Below are positions 8,617-28,149 of a stretch of DNA of 64,000 nt, piece by piece (the stretch's first letter is position 1; each line of letters starts with the position of its first letter). The notes under the pieces are model-generated. The model ran no database searches. It saw nothing but the letters and a program-made list of their open reading frames with translations, and was not told where the DNA came from. The DNA is from an uncultured delta proteobacterium. GTDB taxonomy: Bacteria > Desulfobacterota > Desulfobacteria > Desulfobacterales > SpSt-501. The stretch covers positions 408 to 64,407 of the forward strand of contig CAVOWH010000021.1 of NCBI GenBank assembly GCA_963700055.1. Reading direction: 5' to 3'. A program made the position numbers and the translations under genes.

Positions 8617-11600
8617 ATGCACCCAACGATCGATGAGCGCATCGTGGAAGCGGCCGTCTCTCAGGCTAAAAACTGGCAGGATCGGGCCAACGCCTTGCTG
8701 CAGCCGGAGGAAAAACGCCGCTACCGTCAGCTGGCGCGGCTGGTGGCCAACGCCGACGACAAGGTCCTCCTCACCGCCCTCATCGACCAGTGCTTCCGGT
8801 CCCGGGATGAACGCCGGGTGGCGGACCAGATGTGCCACCTACTGGCGGTCCACGGCATCCCGCGCTTTTTCTCCTTTTCCGAAAAGGTACTGATCCATCT
8901 GTTCATGCGCGCCGGCCGTTTCCTGCCGGACCGCACCGTTCCCCGCATCATCGCCAAAATGCGCGCCGACAGCCGCCATGCCATCATCTCCGGGGAGCAT
9001 GGGGCGCTTGGCGCCTACCTGGAACAACGGCGGGCGGAAGGCATGCGGGTCAGCGTGAATCACCTGGGCGAGGAAGTCCTCGGCGAGCAGGAGGCCCTCG
9101 CGCACATGGACACCTATCTCGCCGACCTGCGCGACCCGCGCATCGAAAGCATCGCCGTCAAGATCTCCACCGTCTGCGCCCAGATCCATCCCCTGCCCTT
9201 TGCGCAAATGGTCGACCGCATATCGGAGCGCCTGTCCATTCTCTACCGTGAAGCCGCGGCCCAGTCTTACACCCGGCCGGACGGCACCCGCGTCCCCAAA
9301 TCCGTCACCCTGGACATGGAGGCCTACCGGGACCTAGCGCTCACGGCGTCCGCCTTCACGCACGCCCTGGACCAGCCGGAGTTCCGAAACTTCTTCGCCG
9401 GCATGGCGCTGCAGGCCTATCTGCCCGACTCTTTCGGCATCCTTCAGGAGATCACCGCCTGGGCCCGCCGACGCGTGGATGCCGGCCACAGCCCGGTCAA
9501 GGTGCGCATCGTCAAGGGCGCCAACATGGAGATGGAGCTCATCGAGTCTTCGCTCAGCGGCTGGCCGCTCGCCCCCTACGACAACAAGCTCGACGTGGAC
9601 GCCAACTGGAAGCGCATGGTCGCCTTCGGCCTCGAGCCGGACCACATCCGCGCCGTGCGCCTCGGCGTGGCTTCGCACAACCTGTTCGACGTCGCCTTTG
9701 CATACCAGCTGGCCCGCCGCAACCAGGTGACGGAATTCTTCACTTTCGAAATGATCGAGGGCATGGCCAACCACGTGCGCCGCGCCGTGCGCGAAACCGG
9801 ACTGGACCTGCTGGCCTATGCGCCGGTGGCCGAAGACCGGCATTTCATCAACGCCGTCGCCTACCTCATCCGCCGCCTGGACGAAAACACCGGGCACCGG
9901 AACTTTCTGCGCCACCTGAACCGGCTGCAGACCGGAACCGCCCCCTGGCAGATGCTGGCGGATCATTTCAGGGCTTCGGAGCGGCGCATTCTAACCGTCG
10001 GCTCACACCCCCACCGCACCCAGGATCGCCTGGCGGAGAACTTCCCCAAAGAGCGCGGCACCTATTACGAGGGCGAGTTCCGCAACGAGCCGGACACGGA
10101 CTGGTCGTTGGCTCCCAACCGCGCCTGGGCCGAGGCCATTCGCCGGCGCTGGATGAAGGCGCCAGGAGACGCACCCATCGACGTGCCGCTGGCGGCCGCC
10201 GGCAAGGAGATTGCGGCAGGCCGCAAAGTGTGCAAGTCCTGCGACCCCAACCAGCTCCCGACGGAGGTGGTCGTGGCGCGCTGCGCGCTGGCCAAAGCCG
10301 ACGACGTCAAGCGTGCCGTCGCCGCCGCCAAGGAAGACCCTGACGGCTGGCGCAAAACGACTCCCCGCCGCCGCCACCGCATCCTGTCGGCAGCTGCCAA
10401 CGAGATCCGCAAGGCACGCGGGGACCTGATCGGAGCGGCGGCCGCCACCACCGGCAAGATTTTCACCGAGGCCGACCCGGAGGTGTCCGAGGCCGTAGAC
10501 TTCGTCGAGTTATACCCGCACGCCGCCCGGTCCTATTTCGACATGCACACCCTCCGCTGCCGGGGAAAAGGCGTCGGGGTGGTGGTCTCGCCCTGGAACT
10601 TCCCCATCGCCATCCCCTGCGGCGGCATCACGGCGGCATTGGCCGCCGGCAACACCGTGATCTTCAAGCCGTCGTCAGACGCGATCCTGGTCGGCTGGCT
10701 GCTCTGTCGATGCTTCTGGCGGGCAGGGATCTCTCGAAACGTTCTGCAGTTCCTGCCCTGCGAGGGCGGCAGCACCGGCGCACGGCTCACGGGCCACCTG
10801 GACGTCGATTTCATCATCCTGACCGGCGGCACCGACACCGGGCTGAGGATTCTGAAGGAGCGGCCGGATGCCCTGCTGGCCGCTGAAACCGGCGGGAAAA
10901 ACGCAACGATCGTCACCGCCATGTCCGACCGCGAGCAGGCCGTCGGCAACGCCCTCTATTCGGCCTTCGGCAACTCCGGGCAAAAATGCTCGGCCACCTC
11001 CCTGCTGATTCTGGAACGGGAAGTCTACGACGACGACAAGTTCAAGCGGCAACTGACGGATGCCGCCGCGACCTTCAAGACCGGTTCGGCCTGGGACTTC
11101 ACCAGCCGGATGGGCCCGCTCGTAAGGCCGCCCGCCAGCCCGTTGCGCGAAGCCCTGACCAGCCTTGAGCCCGGGGAGTCCTGGGCGCTGGAGCCGCGGA
11201 TACTCGCCGACAACGCGCAGCTGTGGACACCGGGGATCAAGTGGGGCGTGAGGCCAGGAAGCACGACGCACCTGACCGAGTTCTTCGGCCCTGTCCTGGG
11301 CGTCATGCGGGCCGAGAGCCTGGAGCAGGCCATCGCATTGACCAACCAGACCGGCTACGGCCTTACCTCCGGCCTGGAGAGCCTCGACCGCCGCGAGCAG
11401 GCCCTCTGGAAGGAGCACGCCAAGGCCGGCAACCTCTACGTGAACCGCGGCACCACCGGGGCCGTCGTTTTGCGGCAGCCCTTCGGCGGCATGGGCAAAT
11501 CCGCCCTGGGTGCGGGCATCAAGGCCGGCGGCCCGCATTACGTGACCCAGTTTTTCGAGGCCGATGAACTCGGCCCGCCGCAGTCGGGGCCGCATGGGGC

Positions 11601-12231
11601 AGGCCACCCCCTGCTGCACCTGGCCCAACGCTGGCAGCTCCGGCTGGACTGGCGGAAGTTCGGCAACGACACCGCCGACATCCGCAAGACGGTCCTCGCC
11701 ATCCGGAGCTATCTCTTTCGCGTCGAAGGCGAGTTCTCGCGCGAGCTGGACTTCTTCCACCTGCGCGGCCAGGACAACGTGCTCCGCCATCTCCCGGTCG
11801 GGACCGTGGCCGTGCGCCTGCACCCGCAGGACGGCCTGTTCGAAACCTTGGCCCGCATCGCCGCCGTCCAAGCCACCGGCAACCGCCTGCGGGTCAGCAT
11901 CCCCAAGGGCCTGGACACGCCGGCGACACGGTTCCTCTACGGTGCCGAGGGACGCCGCCTCACCGGCAGGGAGCCCGTGTTCCAGGAGACCGACCAAGAC
12001 CTCATCGCCCTTATCCCCAAGATCGACCGCATCCGCTATGCTGCGCCGGACCGGGTCCCGAAAGAGGTCTTCGCCGCCGCCGCCGAAACCGGCTTCTACA
12101 TCGCGCGCACGCCGGTCCGGATGGAAGGCCGCATCGAGCTCCTGCACTACTACCGCCAGCAGAGCGTGTGCACGAACTACCACCGCTACGGCAACTTGGG
12201 CTTCCGGGCAGGCGAATTTGACGAAGGCTGA
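8617..12231 (+). CDS. putA: Bifunctional proline dehydrogenase / 1-pyrroline-5-carboxylate dehydrogenase (PutA type without an obvious DNA-binding domain)
   Basis: Intact 1204-aa ORF. The PRODH-like region contains VSVNHLGEEVLGEQEA. ALDH motifs include VVSPWNFPIAIPCGGITAALAAGNTVIFKPS, ETGGKNATIV and FGNSGQKCSATS. Confidence 0.85.
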   Translation: MHPTIDERIVEAAVSQAKNWQDRANALLQPEEKRRYRQLARLVANADDKVLLTALIDQCFRSRDERRVADQMCHLLAVHGIPRFFSFSEKVLIHLFMRAGRFLPDRTVPRIIAKMRADSRHAIISGEHGALGAYLEQRRAEGMRVSVNHLGEEVLGEQEALAHMDTYLADLRDPRIESIAVKISTVCAQIHPLPFAQMVDRISERLSILYREAAAQSYTRPDGTRVPKSVTLDMEAYRDLALTASAFTHALDQPEFRNFFAGMALQAYLPDSFGILQEITAWARRRVDAGHSPVKVRIVKGANMEMELIESSLSGWPLAPYDNKLDVDANWKRMVAFGLEPDHIRAVRLGVASHNLFDVAFAYQLARRNQVTEFFTFEMIEGMANHVRRAVRETGLDLLAYAPVAEDRHFINAVAYLIRRLDENTGHRNFLRHLNRLQTGTAPWQMLADHFRASERRILTVGSHPHRTQDRLAENFPKERGTYYEGEFRNEPDTDWSLAPNRAWAEAIRRRWMKAPGDAPIDVPLAAAGKEIAAGRKVCKSCDPNQLPTEVVVARCALAKADDVKRAVAAAKEDPDGWRKTTPRRRHRILSAAANEIRKARGDLIGAAAATTGKIFTEADPEVSEAVDFVELYPHAARSYFDMHTLRCRGKGVGVVVSPWNFPIAIPCGGITAALAAGNTVIFKPSSDAILVGWLLCRCFWRAGISRNVLQFLPCEGGSTGARLTGHLDVDFIILTGGTDTGLRILKERPDALLAAETGGKNATIVTAMSDREQAVGNALYSAFGNSGQKCSATSLLILEREVYDDDKFKRQLTDAAATFKTGSAWDFTSRMGPLVRPPASPLREALTSLEPGESWALEPRILADNAQLWTPGIKWGVRPGSTTHLTEFFGPVLGVMRAESLEQAIALTNQTGYGLTSGLESLDRREQALWKEHAKAGNLYVNRGTTGAVVLRQPFGGMGKSALGAGIKAGGPHYVTQFFEADELGPPQSGPHGAGHPLLHLAQRWQLRLDWRKFGNDTADIRKTVLAIRSYLFRVEGEFSRELDFFHLRGQDNVLRHLPVGTVAVRLHPQDGLFETLARIAAVQATGNRLRVSIPKGLDTPATRFLYGAEGRRLTGREPVFQETDQDLIALIPKIDRIRYAAPDRVPKEVFAAAAETGFYIARTPVRMEGRIELLHYYRQQSVCTNYHRYGNLGFRAGEFDEG

Positions 12232-12410
12232 CGGGGGCATCCTGGCATTTTAAAAAGCGGCGACGGACCAAACCCTATCCGCTGGGCGATACCAAATGGC
12301 TTTCTGAGTTGACTCCCGCGGCCGAGCGAGTGTAATCTCAATCTGAGTGTCCTTGCAAGGTCTGTAGAATAAAAATCGGTTCAACCCTGCAGCGCAACGA
12401 TCCTCCGGCC

Positions 12411-13898
12411 ATGACGCTCAAATCGATGATACCGGTCATGCTGGCGCTCATGCTGGCACTGCTGGCGGGCGGCGCGGCGGCCGCCGATGGTGTCCGCCCG
12501 CCGGTGCGGGCCGGCAGCTTTTACCCCTCGGATCCCCGCGAGCTCAGCGAGCTGATTGACCGGCTCGGCCAGAGCGCCCGCAGCGTGCCGCAGGACCTCC
12601 CGGAAAGGCAGTCCCTGCGCGCGCTCATCCTGCCCCACGCCGGCTACCCGTATTCCGGTCCGACGGCGGCGCATGCCGCCCGCGTGCTTTCGGAGTATCA
12701 GTTCAAGACGGTGCTGCTGATGGGACCGGACCACTTCGTGGGCTTCCGCAGCGCCGCCGTTCCCACCGTTCAGGCGTTTCAGACGCCCCTTGGCAGGATC
12801 TCGGTGCACCCCGCCGCCGCCGACCTTCTGAAACAGCCGGAACTCTTCGCGCCCCTGCCGCCGGCCGACGACCGCGAGCATTCTCTGGAAGTCGTGCTGC
12901 CGTTTCTGCAGGCCTATCTCAAGTCCTTCCAGCTGGTTCCGGTGGTGGTCGGGCGTGCGGAGGCCGAGCGGATCTGCGCCGCCCTCCTGCCCCTGATCGA
13001 TCAGCAGACCCTCGTGGTGGTGAGCTCGGACCTGTCGCACTTCCTGCCCTATGCCGAGGCGCAGGCCAGAGACCGCCGGACCATCGAGGCGATCCTGGCG
13101 CGCGACCGCCGGGCGCTGCTTCAAGACGCCCAATCGGCCTGCGGCGCGCACCCGCTGGCGATCCTGCTGACCATGGCCGAGCGCTTCGGCTGGCGCCCGG
13201 TGCTGCTCAACTATCTCAACAGCGGCGACACCGCCGGCGACCGGTCCCGGGTGGTGGGGTACGCCGCCATCGCCTTTTTTGGGGAACCGCCCATGCCTGC
13301 CACGAATGAACCGAGTGAACTATTGGCGCCGGAAAAGGGCCAGGTGCTGGTAAAGCTTGCGCGCAGCACGCTGATGGAGAAATTCGGCCTGCCGCTGACG
13401 CCGGCCGAAGCCGAGCGGATGCGATCGGCGCTGAGCGACGCCTCGCTGCAGGCCCGCTGCGGCACGTTCGTAACGCTCAAACACCAGGGACGGCTGAGGG
13501 GCTGCATCGGCAACCTTTCCGCGTCCGATCCCCTGGCCGAGGGCGTCCGCCGTAATGCCATCAACGCGGCCTTCCACGACCCGCGGTTCTCGCCGCTCCA
13601 GGAAAAAGAGCTCGAGCAGATCGAGATCGAAGTCAGCGTGCTCACCGAGCCCCGGCCGCTGGCGTTCCGCGACCCGGAGGACCTGTTGCGCAAGCTGCGG
13701 CCGAACGTCGACGGGGTCATCATCCGCCAAGGTTACGCCAGCGCGACCTTCCTGCCCCAGGTCTGGGAGCAGCTCTTGAAAAAAGAGGATTTTCTGGGCC
13801 ACCTCTGCCTCAAAGCCGGGCTGCCCCGGGACGCATGGAAACATGGCAAACTCGAGGTGTCGACCTATCAGGTCCAGTACTTTGAAGAAGCCAAATGA
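12411..13898 (+). CDS. Fused AmmeMemoRadiSam system protein B (MEMO1-like) and protein A (AMMECR1-like), with N-terminal signal peptide
   Basis: N-terminus MTLKSMIPVMLALMLALLAGGAAAADG. Memo-type motifs ILPHAGYPYSGPTAAHA and VSSDLSHF. AMMECR1 motif CGTFVTLKHQGRLRGCIGN, followed by FHDPRFSPL. Confidence 0.8.
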   Translation: MTLKSMIPVMLALMLALLAGGAAAADGVRPPVRAGSFYPSDPRELSELIDRLGQSARSVPQDLPERQSLRALILPHAGYPYSGPTAAHAARVLSEYQFKTVLLMGPDHFVGFRSAAVPTVQAFQTPLGRISVHPAAADLLKQPELFAPLPPADDREHSLEVVLPFLQAYLKSFQLVPVVVGRAEAERICAALLPLIDQQTLVVVSSDLSHFLPYAEAQARDRRTIEAILARDRRALLQDAQSACGAHPLAILLTMAERFGWRPVLLNYLNSGDTAGDRSRVVGYAAIAFFGEPPMPATNEPSELLAPEKGQVLVKLARSTLMEKFGLPLTPAEAERMRSALSDASLQARCGTFVTLKHQGRLRGCIGNLSASDPLAEGVRRNAINAAFHDPRFSPLQEKELEQIEIEVSVLTEPRPLAFRDPEDLLRKLRPNVDGVIIRQGYASATFLPQVWEQLLKKEDFLGHLCLKAGLPRDAWKHGKLEVSTYQVQYFEEAK

Positions 13899-16005
13899 AA
13901 GGCGCCTCGTCGCCGTCGTCATCACAACGGGAATCGCCTCGGTCGTCACGCAGCTGGTTCTCATCCGCGAGTTCCTGAGCCAATTTCAAGGCAACGAGAT
14001 CGTCATCGCCCTGATCCTCTTCAGCTGGCTGGTGCTGGGCGGACTGGGGACGCTGCTGGCGCGGCCGGCGGCCGGCAGCCGGCTCGCCACACGCCAGGCC
14101 CTCGGCTGGCTTTCGCTCGCGTTGGTGCTCATTTCGACCCCCACCCTGCTCGGCGCCCGCCTGCTGCGGGACCTCGTCTTCACCCACGGCGCCTCCGTGG
14201 GCTTTTATCCCACGTTCGCCTACATCGCGGCCGTCGCGGCGCCCTACGCCCTGCTCATCGGATTTCTGCTGCCGCTCGGTCTCTTTGTGCTGAGGTCTCA
14301 AGTCCCGGATTACCCCGGCGCCCTGGTCTACGTTTGGGACAACATCGGCGACATCGGCGGCGGCGCCCTGTTTTCTTTCCTCATCGTTTTTTGGCTGACC
14401 CCCGTTCAGGCGGTCGTTGCCGCCCACCTGCCCCTGCTGGCGGCCGTTCTTTTCCTGCAGGGAACGGGCCGCCGGCCGGCGGCGGCCCGAATGCTGGCCG
14501 CCGCGGCGGTGCTTCTGACGCTGCTCGCCGCCCTGGCGGCGGAGAAGGCCACCCTAACGCCGTCCCGGGGCGAACTCGCCCACTACCGGGAAACTCGCTA
14601 CGGCCGCATCACGGTGGTCAGGCAGCAGGAGCTGGTCACGCTGTTCCAGGACGGCTCCCCCTTGTTGAGCAGCCAGGATGAGGCCTTGGCGGAGGAAATG
14701 GTGCACTTCCCGCTGGCCCAACTCGACGCGCCCAAGCGCATCCTGCTGATATCGGCGGCGGCCGGGGTGATGGAAGAGCTGGAAAAATACGACCTGGAGT
14801 CCATCGACTACGTCGAGCTCGACCCGGATCTCGCGGAGGTCCTCTTTGACTTCAACCTCCTGAAACCCATCCAACCGCTGCGCCGGATCCACGCCGACGG
14901 GCGCGCCTATCTGGCCGGGGCGCTGCCCGGCTACGACGCCATCCTGGTCAACCTCAACGATCCGCAGACCTACCAAACCAACCGCTTCTTCACCGATCGG
15001 TTCTTTTCCCTGGCGCGCGCGCGGCTGTCCGAACAGGGGGTGCTCGGCTTCTCGATGGGAGGTTTCGACAACTACCTCGCGGAACCGCAACGCCGCAAGC
15101 TCTCCTCCGTTTACCATACCGCCCGGCAGTATTTTCCGCACGTCCTGCTGCTGCCGGGCGCGCGCGTGTTCTTCATCTGCAGCAACCGCCCCCTTCAGGC
15201 CGGTATCCCCGATATGCTGAGGCGCAAAGGCATTGCAACCCTTTACATCAGCGCTTACTTTGACGGCAATGTCACGCCGGAGCGGATTTCATACCTGCGC
15301 GGCCAGATGGACCCGGCGGCGCCGGCCAACGCCGAGCTGGCCCCCTACGTGATGCGCGCCGTTTTCTCGGAGTGGTTCGCGAAGTTTCACTCATCGCCGC
15401 TGTGGTTCATGGGCGCCCTCGCCGCGGCGCTGGCGCTCTATTTGCGGCGCACGAGCCGCGTGGAGTTCATCCTGTTCAGCACCGGATGGATGACCATGGG
15501 CAGCGAGATCCTGGTCATTTTTGCGTTTCAGATTTTTTTTGGGTATATTTATTTCCAGATCGGCATCATCGTGACGGTCTTCCTGGCCGGTCTTCTCCCC
15601 GGGGCGCTCTGGGGGCGCCGGCTCGCCGCGCGGGGCCGGGCCGTTCTGATTCTGTCGGATGTCGCGCTCATCGCCCTCCTGGGTGCCACCTTGGCCGCCG
15701 TGCATGCGGGCGACCGCCTGGGGCAGGCGTTTTACCTCTTCCTCGGTTTCACGGTTTCCTTCGCCTGCGGCCTGCAGGTTCCGGCGGCATTGCGGTTGAG
15801 AGGGGACAGCGGCCGGGCGGTCACGGCGGTTTTTTCAGCGGACCTGATCGGAGCGGCCTTGGGGACGCTGGTGACGAGCACGATTCTCATCCCCTATCTG
15901 GGGATCACGGGGGCGATCGGCGCGCTGCTGGGCTTGAAAGTGCTGAGCCTCCTCATAGCGGGTACCCTGCATGAAGACCCTGTCGCGAAGACAGTTCCTG
16001 GTTGA
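13843..16005 (+). CDS. Polytopic membrane protein with central spermidine-synthase-like (SpeE-fold) domain
   Basis: TM-rich N- and C-terminal thirds. The central domain has YRETRYGRITVVRQQELVTLFQDG and ILLISAAAGVMEELEKYDLESIDYVELDPDL (the Gly-rich loop is degenerate). A more likely start is TTG 13882 (MKKPNERRLVAVVI), which reduces the overlap with the upstream gene. Confidence 0.7.
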   Translation: MANSRCRPIRSSTLKKPNERRLVAVVITTGIASVVTQLVLIREFLSQFQGNEIVIALILFSWLVLGGLGTLLARPAAGSRLATRQALGWLSLALVLISTPTLLGARLLRDLVFTHGASVGFYPTFAYIAAVAAPYALLIGFLLPLGLFVLRSQVPDYPGALVYVWDNIGDIGGGALFSFLIVFWLTPVQAVVAAHLPLLAAVLFLQGTGRRPAAARMLAAAAVLLTLLAALAAEKATLTPSRGELAHYRETRYGRITVVRQQELVTLFQDGSPLLSSQDEALAEEMVHFPLAQLDAPKRILLISAAAGVMEELEKYDLESIDYVELDPDLAEVLFDFNLLKPIQPLRRIHADGRAYLAGALPGYDAILVNLNDPQTYQTNRFFTDRFFSLARARLSEQGVLGFSMGGFDNYLAEPQRRKLSSVYHTARQYFPHVLLLPGARVFFICSNRPLQAGIPDMLRRKGIATLYISAYFDGNVTPERISYLRGQMDPAAPANAELAPYVMRAVFSEWFAKFHSSPLWFMGALAAALALYLRRTSRVEFILFSTGWMTMGSEILVIFAFQIFFGYIYFQIGIIVTVFLAGLLPGALWGRRLAARGRAVLILSDVALIALLGATLAAVHAGDRLGQAFYLFLGFTVSFACGLQVPAALRLRGDSGRAVTAVFSADLIGAALGTLVTSTILIPYLGITGAIGALLGLKVLSLLIAGTLHEDPVAKTVPG

Positions 16006-17152
16006 CGGCGCCTGCCTGGCCGCATCCTGCACGGCAGCGGCCGCCCTCGGACCTTTCACCGCCTGCGTTTCCAGGGCATGGGCTCAGGAAGACGTCAGCG
16101 GCACGGTCTTCAAAGGGGACGGCCCGAAACAGCCTTGGAAATGGTCCCGGGAGGGATACGCCTACCGGAGCCTGGGCGAAAAGCAGGTGACCTGCCTGAT
16201 CTGCCCCAATCACTGTGCGCTTTCCCCCGGTGACCGCAGTGTCTGCCGCTCCAAGGTCAACGTGGACGGCAAGCTCTACAGCCTGGCCTACGGCAACCCC
16301 TGCGCCGTGCACATCGACCCGATCGAGAAGAAGCCGCTCTACCATTTTGCCCCCCGCAGCAAGTCTTTCTCGCTCGCCGCCGCCGGCTGCAACTTCCGCT
16401 GCCTGAACTGCCAGAACTGGGAGATCTCCCAGGCCAAGCCCCACGAGGTGCAGCACCGCGAGCTCTTCCCGGCCGAGGCGGCCGCCGCCGCAAAGCAGGC
16501 CGGCTGCCATTCCATCGCCTACACCTACTCCGAGCCGGTCACCTTCTACGAATACATGCTGGACACGGCCCGGGCCGCGCGCGAGGCCGGCCTGCGCAAC
16601 GTCCTGATCTCGAACGGCTACATCAACCGCGGGCCGCTGATCGACCTCTGCCGGGTGCTCGACGCCGCCAACATCAACCTCAAGGCCTACAGCGACGCGA
16701 TCTACCGCAAACTGAACGGCGGCCGGCTCGAACCGGTGCTTTCCACGTTGAAGACCCTGCACGACCAGGGGGTCCATCTCGAAATCACCAACCTCGTCGT
16801 GCCCACCTATGTGGACGACGAGGACCTGGTGCGACGCATGTGCGCCTGGATTCTGAAGGAAGTCGGCCCGAACCACCCCCTGCACTTCCTGCGGTTTCAC
16901 CCCCTCTACAAGCTGGACCGCCTGCCGCCGACGCCCGTGTCCACCCTGGTACGGTTCCGGGAGATAGCGCTGGCGGAAGGCATCCGCTACGCCTACGTCG
17001 GCAACGTCCCCAACCATGAGGGCAACCACACCTATTGCCATAACTGCCGCACGCTGGTGGTCGCCCGCGCCGGCTATTTCATCCGCGAGGTCCACCTGAA
17101 CAGCCACCGCTGCGCAACCTGCGGCACACCCATACCGGGTGTTTGGGCATAG
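15971..17152 (+). CDS. AmmeMemoRadiSam system radical SAM enzyme with twin-arginine (Tat) signal
   Basis: MKTLSRRQFLVDGACLAASCTAAAALGPFTACVSRAWA-QE fits a Tat motif with an AxA cleavage site. Radical SAM CNFRCLNCQNW. Also N-terminal CLICPNHC...CRSK and C-terminal CHNC...CATC Cys clusters. Confidence 0.8.
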   Translation: MKTLSRRQFLVDGACLAASCTAAAALGPFTACVSRAWAQEDVSGTVFKGDGPKQPWKWSREGYAYRSLGEKQVTCLICPNHCALSPGDRSVCRSKVNVDGKLYSLAYGNPCAVHIDPIEKKPLYHFAPRSKSFSLAAAGCNFRCLNCQNWEISQAKPHEVQHRELFPAEAAAAAKQAGCHSIAYTYSEPVTFYEYMLDTARAAREAGLRNVLISNGYINRGPLIDLCRVLDAANINLKAYSDAIYRKLNGGRLEPVLSTLKTLHDQGVHLEITNLVVPTYVDDEDLVRRMCAWILKEVGPNHPLHFLRFHPLYKLDRLPPTPVSTLVRFREIALAEGIRYAYVGNVPNHEGNHTYCHNCRTLVVARAGYFIREVHLNSHRCATCGTPIPGVWA

Positions 17153-17388
17153 ACGGCAGAGAGAAAAACATGAATAATCCGCTGTGGGCCCAGCCTCACG
17201 GAAGGAGATCGTCGCTCCTCGTCCGAATGAGGGCGCCGATGCCCTCGAAAAAGTCTCTGCACGGCATCCAGACTGGCTGACTCCGTAAAAGGATGATCGG
17301 TAGCTATCAATCGTTTTAGGCTTCTTGCCATTCGAGGTGTCGGAGTATAATACTTCCATAGAATCGGGAATTTCAAAAAGATATTCGT

Positions 17389-17592
17389 TTGAAGGATATA
17401 GCATTTTTTAGAAACTTCAAAATCAATAACGAGCTTGGAGTGCTGACATGGGCAGACGAAATAGATGTTGCGCCTGAAACACTTTATGCTGAAACAACTG
17501 GTTCTCCGCTGCCCGACTGGATGAATCTCCAAGAAGCCACCACTTCGGCGAACATGTCGCGCTTCAGCCGATCTCGTGTAATCGACGGCTGA
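17389..17592 (+). pseudogene. Possible DUF2442-like small protein, C-terminal half only
   Basis: FFRNFKINNELGVLTWADEIDVAPETLY resembles the C-terminal half of DUF2442 proteins. Upstream in frame there are stops, so the N-terminal half is missing. Confidence 0.3.
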
Positions 17593-17719
17593 GCCTGCCA
17601 TTACGATCGGCCAGCACCGCATCCGGGTGAACGATCAGTTCCGTGTGTGCTTTCGGTGGACAGATGCAGGCGCTGAAGACGTCGAGAAGGCATGGCAATT
17701 GATCGACGCCGCGCTCTAA
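17582..17719 (+). pseudogene. HigB-type (killer protein) toxin fragment
   Basis: Frame 2 reads ...HRIRVNDQFRVCFRWTDAGAEDVE..., matching the conserved IRINDQWRICFRW...DVEI core of HigB/RelE-fold toxins. There is no start codon, and both the N-terminal half and the native C-terminus are absent. Confidence 0.45.
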
Positions 17720-17981
17720 CCCGCGCATGAACAAGGACGCACAGACAATGAAAGGCTGGAGATGAAATGAAACAGGCCAATCGCTGGAGTAGAAGCCTTT
17801 CGATCAGATGTGGCTAAGCCCTGCGCTGGTTCCGTCATTTAGGGCAGCATGGATAGACCGTAGAGCCAAACATGGCGGGAATGGCAGCGACCGAGATCAC
17901 GTGTGGATTGAGATGGATGTGTCGTGGGGCTATGGTAAGCAAATCACAACCAATCCCTCTGTGTCAGGATATTTTGATTTT

Positions 17982-18017: not shown

Positions 18018-18129
18018 TTTAACCCAATCTCATGCGATTATAGCCCTCAGAATCCTTCGAAGCCGCAATAAATCTGCACTTCCTTGAATCGATACCTTTC
18101 ATCTGCGGTGGCCTATATTCTGGAACCGC

Positions 18130-18423
18130 TTATGCCTGATAAGGCGTTTCTTAGGAACTGGGTGCGGTTGATCCAAGAAATTTATGAAGTGGATCCGCTG
18201 GTGTGCCCCAGGTCCGAGGGGGAAATGCGAGTGATTGTATTCATCGAAGATCAGGAGGTGATCCGCAAGATCCTCACCCATCTGGGGCTGTGGCTGACTA
18301 AGGCCCGGCCCCGGCCGGGTAGCCCACGCTCCCTCGGAACTGGTTGCTGCACCTTTCGATGACTGGCCGGCGCCCAGCGCCGACGATTACCTCATCGATC
18401 CGCTGTATCCCGACGAAGCGTAA
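18130..18423 (+). mobile_element. IS91-family (Y2 HUH-type) transposase, C-terminal remnant, frameshifted
   Basis: WVRLIQEIYEVDPLVCPRSEGEMRVIVFIEDQEVIRKILTHLGLW matches the conserved IS91-family C-terminus; the CPxCxGxM zinc motif has decayed to CPRSEGEM. The tail DDWPAPSADDYLIDPLYPDEA-stop reads in another frame. Confidence 0.6.
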
Positions 18424-26835: not shown

Positions 26836-26910
26836 TAATCTGCAATGATTTTATGTTGTTGACTGCCTGAAATTTCATCCGACGTATCACCGAAGAGCCG
26901 TTTCTGATAT
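26836..26910 (+). repeat. Copy B of the taatctgYaat...atccgacgtat element
   Basis: taatctgcaat (26836) and atccgacgtatcaccgaagagccgtttctgatat (26877). It is a direct repeat of copy A on the other side of the nim-like gene. Confidence 0.55.
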
Positions 26911-27007
26911 ACTAGCTACCTATCCCATATCGTCAAAAATTTCTCACGGAATTGGTGTTGCTCCTAAGAGCTCATCATGAGATGGTAGTAAGTAGTCGTT
27001 TTATAAA

Positions 27008-27048
27008 GGAGAAGGCGGACACACATGCGCAGGGTATCCGCCTTCTTA
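27008..27048 (-). terminator. Rho-independent terminator candidate for the OsmC-like gene
   Basis: Stem gaaggcgga (27011-19) / tccgccttc (27037-45). On the minus strand it is followed by tttataaaa. Confidence 0.45.
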
Positions 27049-27061
27049 ATTGGAATCTATT

Positions 27062-27640
27062 TTATTCAACAACCAGTTTTGAATCGAGTTTGATCGCATT
27101 AGCTACGTTAAATCGATTTGGGGACGTAGCACAAACGGCTTCGTGAACCTTCTGAAACTGTTGTGGCGTTCCATTTCCCTTTATGTGAACGGTATAGCGA
27201 ATTTTATCATACCCGGGCTTTACATTCGGATCAAGACCCAAGAATCCACGCAGATCAATGTCGCCCTCAGTTTCAATTCTGAGCTCCTCCAATTCGATCC
27301 CCTCCATTGAGCAGCCAACCACGTAACCGACCATGATACAGCCATTCAGCGCCGCCATGAGATATTCCTGAGGATTGGCAAATTTGTTGGTACCGCCAAG
27401 CTCAGTGGGCTCATCAATTTGGATGGTAAAATCTTTCTTGATATACTCCTTGCCAAATCCGTATCCCTTAACTTTTGTATCTGAGCGGGTGCCTCCCTTC
27501 CAATGACTGCTTACATGCCAGTGAGTATTCGCGTTTTCAGGATCTTTAGCCACATGGCCAATCAAGGCCTTAACCCCTTCGGTATTAATGCCATTTACCA
27601 CAGTTGGTTTAATTTTATCGTCATCTCTTGTTTTCTGCAA
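27062..27640 (-). CDS. OsmC/Ohr-family peroxiredoxin-like protein
   Basis: TTG start 7 nt after AGGAGG. PQEYLMAALNGCIMVGYVVGCSMEGIELEELRIETEGDIDLRGFLG and AVCATSPN contain the two conserved Cys regions of the OsmC family. Confidence 0.8.
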   Translation of the reverse strand: MQKTRDDDKIKPTVVNGINTEGVKALIGHVAKDPENANTHWHVSSHWKGGTRSDTKVKGYGFGKEYIKKDFTIQIDEPTELGGTNKFANPQEYLMAALNGCIMVGYVVGCSMEGIELEELRIETEGDIDLRGFLGLDPNVKPGYDKIRYTVHIKGNGTPQQFQKVHEAVCATSPNRFNVANAIKLDSKLVVE

Positions 27641-28149
27641 GATTAAGTCCTCCTATTTCTACGAGAAAATGAAATCGTAGAAAACACCTGCTGCTGAGAA
27701 AATATAAGGCCAGGCAACAGTCACTCTAAGGTGGATAGAAGGTGTGTCTCATATGGAGTGGTGTCAACTGTTACGAAATTGCCCTGAATTTTCCAATTCC
27801 ATCCACGCCAGCGTCAGCTGTAACAAATGATAGTCCGGCGCCACTCCGTGCCAATTCCCTTTCTGATCCAATCTATCGGCGCAGCGGTGTTTTTTGGGAA
27901 TTGAGAGGGGGTATTGGAAAGAGATTAGAAGTTTCCCTGCTGACCCTTATTTCTGAGAGCAAAACAGTCAGTGAACTCCAGTTCTGCCGGAGGTCACTGA
28001 CCGTAATCTCCTTCCAATTTTTCCCGGTGAATGAGCAGTTTTATCTTTGGTAGCGACCCTGTCTCGTCTATTCTGTCAATTCATCATTTCGGCATTATCT
28101 TATTGGACAGGTACAAGGATGTGATAACAGCTTTCGATAGGAGGAAGAC

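Follow-up and report, generated by a model that had tools for sequence, protein, structure and literature searches.

The AmmeMemoRadiSam system of an uncultured delta proteobacterium (GenBank assembly GCA_963700055.1, contig CAVOWH010000021.1, positions 408 to 64,407), encoded at positions 12411 to 17152 of the 64,000-nucleotide stretch analysed here (the window), has the features of an extracytoplasmic variant of a canonically cytoplasmic system. Its MEMO1-like (Memo) and AMMECR1-like domains are fused behind a predicted Sec-type signal peptide, its radical S-adenosylmethionine (SAM) enzyme (rSAM) starts with a twin-arginine (Tat-type) leader, and the gene between them encodes a membrane protein that combines a spermidine-synthase (SpeE)-like domain with a predicted major facilitator superfamily (MFS) fold. 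The best overall explanation, to which a probability of about 0.5 is given, is that the enzymes work outside the cytoplasm in company with a transporter handling adenosyl compounds. Conservation of MEMO1 and AMMECR1 extends from archaea to humans, and both have been linked to disease in humans; to our knowledge, neither their biochemical function nor the reaction of their prokaryotic rSAM partner is known.

Organization of the operon

The three AmmeMemoRadiSam components are encoded in a single operon of overlapping genes, and the same trio is found in related loci. The features of the operon are listed below (residues of the SpeE-like protein in the numbering of its 720-amino-acid maximal open reading frame (ORF); TM, transmembrane helix).

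12411 to 13898, + strand: Memo-AMMECR1 (B-A) fusion gene, 495 amino acids (ORF; TIGR04336 and TIGR04335, PF01875 and PF01871)
12411 to 12485, + strand: predicted Sec-type signal peptide of the fusion, residues 1-25, MTLKSMIPVMLALMLALLAGGAAAA, predicted cleavage between AAA and DG by the AxA rule
12495 to 13277, + strand: Memo (MEMO1-like) domain, residues 29-289 (TIGR04336, PF01875)
13344 to 13883, + strand: AMMECR1 domain, residues 312-491, with the LRGCIG motif at residue 364 (TIGR04335, PF01871)
13882 to 16005, + strand: gene of the SpeE-like membrane protein, predicted 14-TM MFS fold, 707 amino acids from TTG 13882 (maximal ORF from ATG 13843, 720 amino acids)
13891 to 14556, + strand: N-terminal bundle TM1-6 plus TM7, residues 17-238 (AlphaFold2 helices, family hydropathy)
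14572 to 15303, + strand: SpeE-fold alpha/beta domain, predicted periplasmic, residues 244-487 (PF01564, spermidine synthases of the PDB, fold)
14749 to 14766, + strand: degenerate Gly loop ISAAAG, inside the SpeE-fold domain
15400 to 15963, + strand: TM8 plus C-terminal bundle TM9-14, residues 520-707 (AlphaFold2, hydropathy, internal repeat, MFS matches)
15971 to 17152, + strand: AmmeMemoRadiSam rSAM gene, 393 amino acids (TIGR04337, PF04055)
15971 to 16084, + strand: twin-arginine (Tat-type) leader of rSAM, residues 1-38, SRRQFLV, with the RR codons at 15986-15991 and predicted cleavage between AWA and QE
16388 to 16411, + strand: CX3CX2C motif of rSAM, C140/C144/C147, invariant in the alignment

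The fusion scores 245.2 bits against TIGR04336 (component B, cut-off 26, residues 29-289) and 201 bits against TIGR04335 (component A, cut-off 99, residues 312-491), while rSAM scores 357.5 bits against TIGR04337 (cut-off 220), to which it aligns only from residue 66. An original prediction, made from the letters of the sequence, had recognised the three defining components, and all of them are above the NCBIfam cut-offs. The ORF positions that it gave (12411-13898, 13843-16005 and 15971-17152, all on the + strand) are confirmed, and the two leaders and the ISAAAG loop that it quoted had been read correctly. Its description of the middle gene holds for the overlapping frames, and the length of 720 amino acids is revised to 707, counted from TTG 13882. 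The homologue P0271, 100% identical and 707 residues long, supports this start; about 100 homologues are 700-710 residues long, and other gene callers also use TTG 13882.

The fusion and SpeE-like genes overlap by 17 nt (56 nt if ATG 13843 is used) and the SpeE-like and rSAM genes by 35 nt. Identical 17- and 35-nt overlaps occur in a related locus (83% identity of the rSAM), and such overlapping frames are compatible with translational coupling. Scanning of positions 12000-17800 returned 3 sigma-70 promoter-like sites (1.0 expected) and 8 terminator-like sites (5.4 expected), none of either kind at the operon boundaries. The nearest named relatives are metagenome-assembled genomes (MAGs) of Desulfobacterales.

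Judged from their motifs, the fusion and rSAM look like active enzymes, with the Fe-binding Memo site, LRGCIG and CX3CX2C intact. The metal ligands of MEMO1 are H49, H81 and C244 (PMC11081632). Their counterparts are kept in the alignment of the fusion, in the motifs PHAGY, GPDH and ACGAHP. The AMMECR1 domain has 1wsc, 1zq7 and 1vaj as PDB relatives. Besides CX3CX2C, rSAM possesses eight further conserved cysteines, at positions 75, 78, 82 and 92 and at 356, 359, 381 and 384. The closest solved and the closest characterised relatives of its core are glycyl-radical activases, exemplified by the pyruvate formate-lyase (PFL) activase (3c8f, 3cb8). This kinship suggests abstraction of a hydrogen atom, possibly from a protein substrate, with SAM being consumed. 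The similarity amounts to about 48 bits, however, and unlike the PFL activase the window enzyme has extra N- and C-terminal cysteine clusters and a Tat leader, and it lacks a glycyl-radical enzyme partner. With the canonical cytoplasmic AmmeMemoRadiSam system the window system shares the co-location of TIGR04335, TIGR04336 and TIGR04337 members as well as intact CX3CX2C, extra Cys motifs, Memo ligands and AMMECR1 GCIG. It differs from that system in the fusion of A and B, in the export leader borne by every enzyme and in a fourth gene, that of the SpeE-like MFS protein.

Export leaders of the two enzymes

Leader classes were assigned with our own regular-expression and hydropathy heuristic, start-codon logic and conservation. 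The rSAM leader matches the S-R-R-x-F-L consensus; as in Tat substrates with an S/T-R-R-x-F-L-K-type motif, it continues with an h-region of moderate hydrophobicity and an AxA site (AWA before QE). ATG 15971 is the sole in-frame ATG, GTG or TTG upstream of codon 73, which lies inside the conserved core; production of the enzyme thus entails translation of the leader. A mis-called start, the pitfall that the original prediction had named for its own claim, is thereby rejected for rSAM. The pattern [S/T/N/D]RRxF[L/I] is in place in 114 of the 120 nearest homologues (63-91% identity), the 6 exceptions being truncated calls. In an alignment that reaches down to 36% identity (41 relatives), the h-region drifts but neither R6 nor R7 ever changes, as one would expect of a functional Tat signal. 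The twin-arginine motif that had been read from the window is thus borne out by the family.

The relatives come from two scans. In the first, one genome per GTDB species was searched, yielding 80 loci from at least 10 phyla with an rSAM 41-66% identical to that of the window. In the second, a reverse test, metagenomes were scanned with an alignment of 11 SpeE-like sequences, yielding 80 loci at 30-85% identity.

By the same heuristic, the fusion leader (MTLKS...LLAGGAAAA, then DG) comprises a charged n-region, a hydrophobic h-region and a small-residue site, and precedes the Memo core at residue 29. Alternative in-frame starts exist at codons 6, 10, 14 and 32. Among relatives the leaders vary in sequence and keep their hydrophobic character, many with a lipobox-like cysteine. 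A Sec-type or lipoprotein-type hydrophobic leader begins the Memo or fusion protein at 38 of 41 assessable genome loci and at 33 of 35 metagenome loci, which supports the signal peptide originally proposed. The B-A fusion proposed with it is real and is the norm in the clade, 40 of the 43 Memo genes of the 80 genome loci being fused. Taken together, the leaders make export of the enzymes likely.

Several variations on this theme were observed. Bacteroidota and Ignavibacteriota loci (e.g. L015, L016, L027, L029 and L039) have mostly lipoprotein-like Memo-AMMECR1 leaders, and the rSAM leaders of these phyla are consistently KR (SKREF[IL]K), not RR. An exported sub-clade (L011 and the metagenome loci L109-L137) encodes AMMECR1 only, no Memo, together with the SpeE-like protein and rSAM; AMMECR1 bears its own signal peptide in 23 of 24 cases there, and the rSAM leader is an RK variant (TRKEFL). 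P0135 (835 amino acids) and P0142 (838 amino acids) are triple fusions, in which a Sec-like leader or TM segment, Memo, AMMECR1 and rSAM form a single polypeptide. Between the leader of the window rSAM and its canonical core (positions 16084-16165, residues 39-65) lies a clade-specific motif, FKGD(A/G)Pxx(L/P)WKWSxEG, that is common to exported rSAMs and absent from leaderless members; this segment may be a docking element. To note, a second radical SAM protein, of a different, PflA/PflX-like type, is encoded near the system at four loci (L016, L017, L028 and L060); as it too starts with a twin-arginine leader (MISRREFIV...), more than one family of radical SAM enzymes may be Tat-bearing. Two complete Desulfobacterales MAG chromosomes, L003 (CP070771.1) and L007 (CP070746.1), carry a lone Tat-leader rSAM paralogue, with no Memo, AMMECR1 or SpeE-like gene within 10 kb.

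Fold and topology of the SpeE-like protein

The AlphaFold2 model of the middle protein (46 homologues, pLDDT 88.3, pTM 0.87) consists of seven helices, an alpha/beta domain and a second helical bundle. In Foldseek searches, the soluble domain resembles spermidine synthases (TM-score 0.64-0.73, 17-22% identity), while the two bundles taken together resemble the MFS transporters SV2A, PfHT1, NorC (14-TM) and SLC45A4. TM1-6 are homologous to TM9-14 (HHalign probability 98%, E 1.3e-13), which implies a 6+2+6 architecture with the SpeE-like domain in the loop of the TM7-TM8 hairpin. The same arrangement, with two extra helices separating the homologous 6-TM bundles, is found in 14-TM MFS transporters of the DHA2 type (NorC, 7d5p). 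SV2A (9okf) exhibits a large extracytoplasmic domain at the same position, its luminal domain likewise following TM7. Unlike these transporters, the window protein has no MFS match at the sequence level, and its inserted domain has a nucleotide-binding fold.

The distribution of charges gives the orientation. Averaged over 42 diverse members, the net charge is +1.5 for the N-terminus, -1.0 for loop 1-2, +2.5 for loop 2-3, -0.4 for loop 3-4, +2.3 for loop 6-7, +2.1 for loop 8-9, +2.6 for loop 10-11 and +1.2 for the C-terminus, the SpeE-like domain lying between TM7 and TM8. According to this alternation, the N- and C-terminus lie on the cytoplasmic side of the membrane and the SpeE-like domain on the periplasmic side. 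Together, the positive-inside pattern and the 6+2+6 architecture give good grounds to expect that the domain faces outward. Free-standing SpeE-like domains behind a signal peptide were also sought as evidence on topology; the two candidates (L082 and L053) proved to be frameshifted assemblies and were discarded.

Within the bundles, polar or charged intrahelical residues are conserved (Q37, R42, E43, E52, Q563 and D667). In the soluble domain, the counterparts of two SpeE residues that, according to established structural work on SpeE, bind ribose (Glu of VELD, E325) and adenine (Asp of ADG, D352) are conserved in 93% and 100%, respectively, of the 42 members. The window domain shares its Rossmann-type fold with SpeE (1uir, 1inl and 6o65) and, like SpeE, keeps this Glu and this Asp. 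In contrast to SpeE, PRK03612 and NF037959, it is inserted between TM7 and TM8, where it is predicted periplasmic, and it has lost the Asp of the GGGDGG loop, the catalytic Tyr and the catalytic Asp: ISAAAG replaces GGGDGG, Ala stands at the position of the Tyr and NLNDP replaces DSSDP. The GGGDGG Asp, whose role in SpeE is to recognise the aminopropyl amine of decarboxylated SAM (dcSAM), is missing in 42 of 42 members; the catalytic Asp is the first one of DSSDP. With the adenosine residues kept and the catalytic residues lost, the domain looks, at the level of sequence, like an adenosyl-ligand binder and not an aminopropyltransferase.

These residues bear on another reading of the middle gene, namely that it encodes an ordinary membrane-bound polyamine aminopropyltransferase that is a neighbour by chance. 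The annotations would suggest as much: the protein matches PF01564 (35.7 bits, cut-off 22.9, a domain-level match), its homologues are labelled 'spermidine synthase' or 'hypothetical protein' in databases, and its best NCBIfam match is PRK03612, to which its N-terminal membrane domain also aligns. Yet it stays far under the cut-off of every spermidine-synthase equivalog (TIGR00417, 43.7 against 249.55; PRK00811, 60.5 against 260; PRK03612, 107.4 against 472), and it scores 34 against a cut-off of 40 with the 'fused MFS/spermidine synthase' family NF037959, through its SpeE part only. No curated family captures the full protein. Both catalytic and dcSAM-specificity residues are missing in 42 of 42 members, and, whichever of the two is taken as the starting point, gene and system are conserved together over phyla and differing gene orders, as detailed below. 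A genuine spermidine synthase is thus effectively refuted, and the chance-neighbour reading is scarcely credible.

Co-conservation of the SpeE-like gene with the system

From the rSAM side, 36 genome loci flanked on each side by 5 kb or more were searched for a SpeE-like gene within 10 kb. A gene for a 700-830-residue SpeE-like polytopic protein lies near 25 of the 30 well-flanked leader-bearing rSAM genes, in at least 10 phyla; among the six well-flanked loci without a scored rSAM leader, it is missing in four and present in two (L057 and L076; Fisher p = 0.024). Gene order and orientation differ between these loci and the other neighbours are unrelated. From the SpeE-like side, a Memo, AMMECR1 or rSAM gene adjoins the SpeE-like gene at 75 of the 80 metagenome loci. 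When at least 2.5 kb is available on both flanks, a partner gene is present at 22 of 22 loci, and rSAM at 21 of them. The rSAM genes of these SpeE-like-derived loci bear a Tat-like leader in 55 of 58 cases.

The association anticipated from the single operon of the window therefore holds in both directions (25/30 and 22/22). The SpeE-like gene is a co-conserved fourth component, described in no paper found in the searchable literature, and its product is very probably a functional partner of the system.

Distribution of the leader-bearing variant

The family survey that the original prediction had called for was made on relatives of the TIGR04337 type, namely the 150 best representatives of 50%-identity clusters near the query rSAM, of which 122 could be assessed. 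Their N-termini fall into five classes.

No extension (canonical cytoplasmic form): 68 of 122 representatives
Tat-like leader: 24 of 122
Hydrophobic start: 12 of 122 (2 short leaders, 10 long N-terminal fusions)
Long N-terminal fusion without hydrophobic start: 6 of 122
Unclassified short extension: 12 of 122

Tat-like leaders thus make up about 20% of the assessable cluster representatives near the query. In the 80 genome loci, 57 rSAM leaders are Tat-like (RR or KR) and 10 are hydrophobic, Sec-like or anchor-like. A tally of 57 loci by lineage gives 39 RR, 17 KR (mostly Bacteroidota and Ignavibacteriota) and 1 RK (L011, missed by the pattern). The loci originate from Desulfobacterales, other Thermodesulfobacteriota, Bacteroidota, Ignavibacteriota, Verrucomicrobiota, Omnitrophota, Acidobacteriota, Planctomycetota, Zixibacteria, KSB1, Nitrospiraceae and others. 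To note, a bin labelled Candidatus Aenigmatarchaeota (L014) contains a bacterial-type exported system with an RREFV leader, a divergent SpeE-like gene and an rSAM 56% identical to that of the window; this may reflect bin contamination or horizontal transfer.

The exported form is therefore a large, deep sub-family, ordinary in databases. The original prediction had allowed that it might turn out to be both ordinary and already documented; the first part is correct, while for the second no description was found in the searchable literature, which did not include Burroughs et al. 2019. On the available evidence the variant is thus not known to be an already documented state. Burroughs et al. (J Biol Chem) reportedly analysed Memo-AMMECR1-rSAM contexts and tied them to isoprenoid modification.

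Redox modules beside related enzymes

A DsbD_2 (CcdA-like) gene adjoins rSAM at 9 of the 11 loci where the rSAM leader is hydrophobic and not RR (L030, L045, L047, L052, L056, L068, L071, L073 and L080), versus 0 of 56 Tat-type loci (p = 1.3e-9). In three of them (L047, L056 and L071), the DsbD_2 gene also encodes FMN_bind, with a flavinylation-type SGATISS motif, and a NapH/NosR-like Fer4_5. Fusions also occur: five rSAMs of the family (P0129, P0132, P0134, P0138 and P0130) carry DsbD_2, FMN_bind and/or Fer4_5 at their N-terminus. Modules of this kind are known to bring reducing power to extracytoplasmic sites; for FMN_bind this is described in an account that leaves radical SAM unmentioned (Meheust et al. 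2021, PMC8238504). The association with DsbD_2, FMN_bind and Fer4_5 suggests, independently of the leaders, that leader-bearing members work outside the cytoplasm, and the modules point to a route by which exported members of the family could obtain electrons or reducing power. A Sec-exported Fe-S rSAM would need cluster loading outside the cytoplasm.

The window system resembles these relatives in its family, and extracytosolic electron-transfer modules (DsbD/CcdA; NapH/NosR-like Fer4_5 with ApbE-flavinylated FMN_bind) are fused or adjacent to the non-RR-leader enzymes; they are found neither in the window nor in the 56 Tat-type loci. Relatives of DsbD_2 and of DUF362 were sought in the 64-kb window and none was found. 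At six loci elsewhere (L053, L055, L061, L062, L064 and L085), mainly in Acidobacteriota-like and delta-proteobacterial bins, a twin-arginine DUF362 protein (e.g. SRREAVMRLG) stands beside a Tat-type rSAM and could be a periplasmic redox partner.

The association with DsbD_2 also helps to judge whether there is any export at all. The leaders might be start-codon artefacts, or membrane anchors of enzymes that face the cytoplasm, with the SpeE-like domain cytoplasmic too. Export is a prediction from sequence, the fusion offers the downstream starts given above, SAM and low-potential reductants are cytoplasmic, and the Sec-type leader that some lineages place on an Fe-S enzyme is hard to square with known biology. 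Set against this, rSAM has no alternative start and its RR is invariant over deep divergence despite the drift of the h-region; the fusion leaders are conserved in character, many with a lipobox Cys; the positive-inside pattern and the 6+2+6 architecture put the SpeE-like domain outside; and an exclusive association with DsbD_2 is sensible only for extracytoplasmic cysteines. A system that is not exported is accordingly very improbable.

Proposed mechanism and alternatives

Under the preferred reading, the fusion would leave the cytoplasm unfolded via Sec and fold in the periplasm, while rSAM would acquire its [4Fe-4S] clusters in the cytoplasm and then leave folded via Tat. The MFS/SpeE-like protein would join the cytoplasmic adenosyl pool to the exported rSAM, exporting SAM for delivery to the enzyme and/or capturing and returning the inhibitory by-product 5'-deoxyadenosine. 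The exported enzymes would act on a substrate located in the envelope. 5'-Deoxyadenosine closely resembles methylthioadenosine (MTA), a tight ligand of SpeE enzymes, and we know of no periplasmic nucleosidase that would remove it. Known SAM carriers (the mitochondrial SAM/S-adenosylhomocysteine antiporter SAMC and the SAM transporters of Rickettsia and Chlamydia) bring SAM into compartments unable to make it, some by exchange for a by-product. The analogy is functional only: their folds are unrelated (mitochondrial carrier family, drug/metabolite transporter superfamily), and transport by the window protein is hypothetical. The original prediction had suggested that the membrane protein could matter for the supply of SAM. 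This idea has gained an MFS fold and a predicted outward domain with adenosine residues, and it continues to be an inference; from fold, topology and residue conservation, shuttling of an adenosyl compound by this protein is a tentative proposal, to be held well below export itself.

Oxygen-sensitive radical SAM chemistry would probably be located outside the cytoplasm. AMMECR1 is the strongest Pfam marker of anaerobes, being found in 50.7% of anaerobes versus 3.4% of aerobes (PMC13386939), a link that fits oxygen-sensitive chemistry in the envelope.

Several points weigh against this reading. The leader classes come from heuristics of our own. TatA and TatC have no match in the 64-kb window, the remaining genome being outside its scope, and the window operon encodes no low-potential electron source. 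The MFS assignment derives from fold and internal repeat only: no Pfam MFS family matches the middle protein at E <= 0.01, and the target TM-scores of the Foldseek MFS matches are modest (0.40-0.53). MFS proteins also flip lipids, and the ligand of the SpeE-like domain, as read from its residues, could be other than SAM. Finally, the SpeE-like gene is not found within 10 kb at 5 of the 30 well-flanked leader-bearing loci, nor at 7 of the 11 loci with non-RR rSAM leaders. Adjacency is thus not universal and, unless the gene resides elsewhere in these genomes, neither is a role in SAM supply.

Some of these points favour a different role for the membrane protein in a system that is still exported. 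It might flip or extract an envelope lipid, a polyprenyl compound or an amphiphile for the periplasmic enzymes, or its SpeE-like domain might perform an alkyl transfer of the SAM type on that substrate. MFS lipid flippases exist (LtaA, LplT and MFSD2A), Memo-AMMECR1-rSAM contexts have reportedly been tied to isoprenoid modification (Burroughs et al. 2019), the intramembrane residues Q37, R42, E43, E52, Q563 and D667 are compatible with an amphiphile, and exported systems devoid of the SpeE-like gene are easier to explain for a substrate accessory than for a cofactor supplier. However, the residues that are kept are exactly the adenosine binders of SpeE, which points to a nucleoside ligand; alkyl transfer still requires SAM outside the cytoplasm; and genes of lipid metabolism do not recur in the neighbourhoods. 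Handling of the substrate is therefore an unlikely though serious alternative.

The lack of a reductant module in the window operon counts in favour of another scenario, in which rSAM is exported pre-loaded with its cluster and SAM. The enzyme would then regenerate SAM, as lysine 2,3-aminomutase does in every cycle, or act once as an activase on Memo-AMMECR1, the SpeE-like domain being a docking or regulatory pseudoenzyme that tethers the complex. Tat is established to export folded, cofactor-loaded proteins, the closest characterised relatives are glycyl-radical activases acting on protein substrates, and the catalytic residues of SpeE are lost, all of which would be in keeping with it. This scenario leaves unexplained a 14-TM transporter fold with conserved intramembrane polar residues in all phyla as well as the conservation of the adenosine-binding residues. 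Moreover, activases use SAM stoichiometrically, and a Sec-exported target that folds outside still needs SAM there. It is considered improbable, ranking below the handling of a substrate.

Other features of the window

The genes that flank the operon encode a PutA-like protein, a WD40 protein, a short-chain dehydrogenase/reductase (SDR), an epimerase and a hexapeptide transferase; none shows a link to the system, and related loci have unrelated flanks. Upstream (8617-12231), the PutA-like proline dehydrogenase/pyrroline-5-carboxylate (P5C) dehydrogenase is 1204 amino acids long, scores 363 against the PutA equivalog cut-off of 747 and possesses a C-terminal extension of about 220 amino acids past its aldehyde dehydrogenase domain. 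Downstream, the segment 17153-18720 is AT-richer and apparently non-coding or decayed; a short ORF within it (18084-18362, …EVDPLVCPRSEGEMRVIVFIEDQEVIRKILTHLGLW…) looks like a degraded transposase C-terminus. It is followed (18720-21806) by a 1028-amino-acid protein whose N-terminal part is a WD40 beta-propeller; a TM segment is also predicted, and the long C-terminal region has no family match. Further on, the GC content dips to 0.42 at positions 26001-28000, compared to about 0.6-0.7 elsewhere, which may mark foreign DNA.

Implications

Radical SAM enzymes need SAM, low-potential electrons and anoxia and are for this reason taken to be cytoplasmic, a working assumption that the variant calls into question. 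Candidates for meeting these needs outside the membrane are the MFS/SpeE-like protein here and the DsbD/FMN/Fe-S conduits in related lineages. At its widest, the proposal would be that many anaerobes run periplasmic radical SAM chemistry through exported MEMO, AMMECR1 and rSAM, served by a new class of MFS transporters that delivers SAM and/or retrieves 5'-deoxyadenosine through an outward domain derived from SpeE, with sister lineages bearing Sec leaders paired with DsbD/FMN/NapH-like conduits; so broad a generalization is speculative and, for now, unlikely to hold in full. If true, the Sec-leader sisters would imply that reduction, and perhaps Fe-S cluster loading, of rSAM takes place outside the cytoplasm, and the system of the window would be the first to export SAM as well as the first radical SAM pathway located outside the cytoplasm.

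For the MEMO1 and AMMECR1 families, the SpeE-like protein provides a new and specific partner through which they may be studied. As the exported form is widespread and strongly conserved, possible substrates would be restricted to molecules of the envelope and, if the reading is correct, the search for the MEMO1/AMMECR1 substrate would narrow to these.

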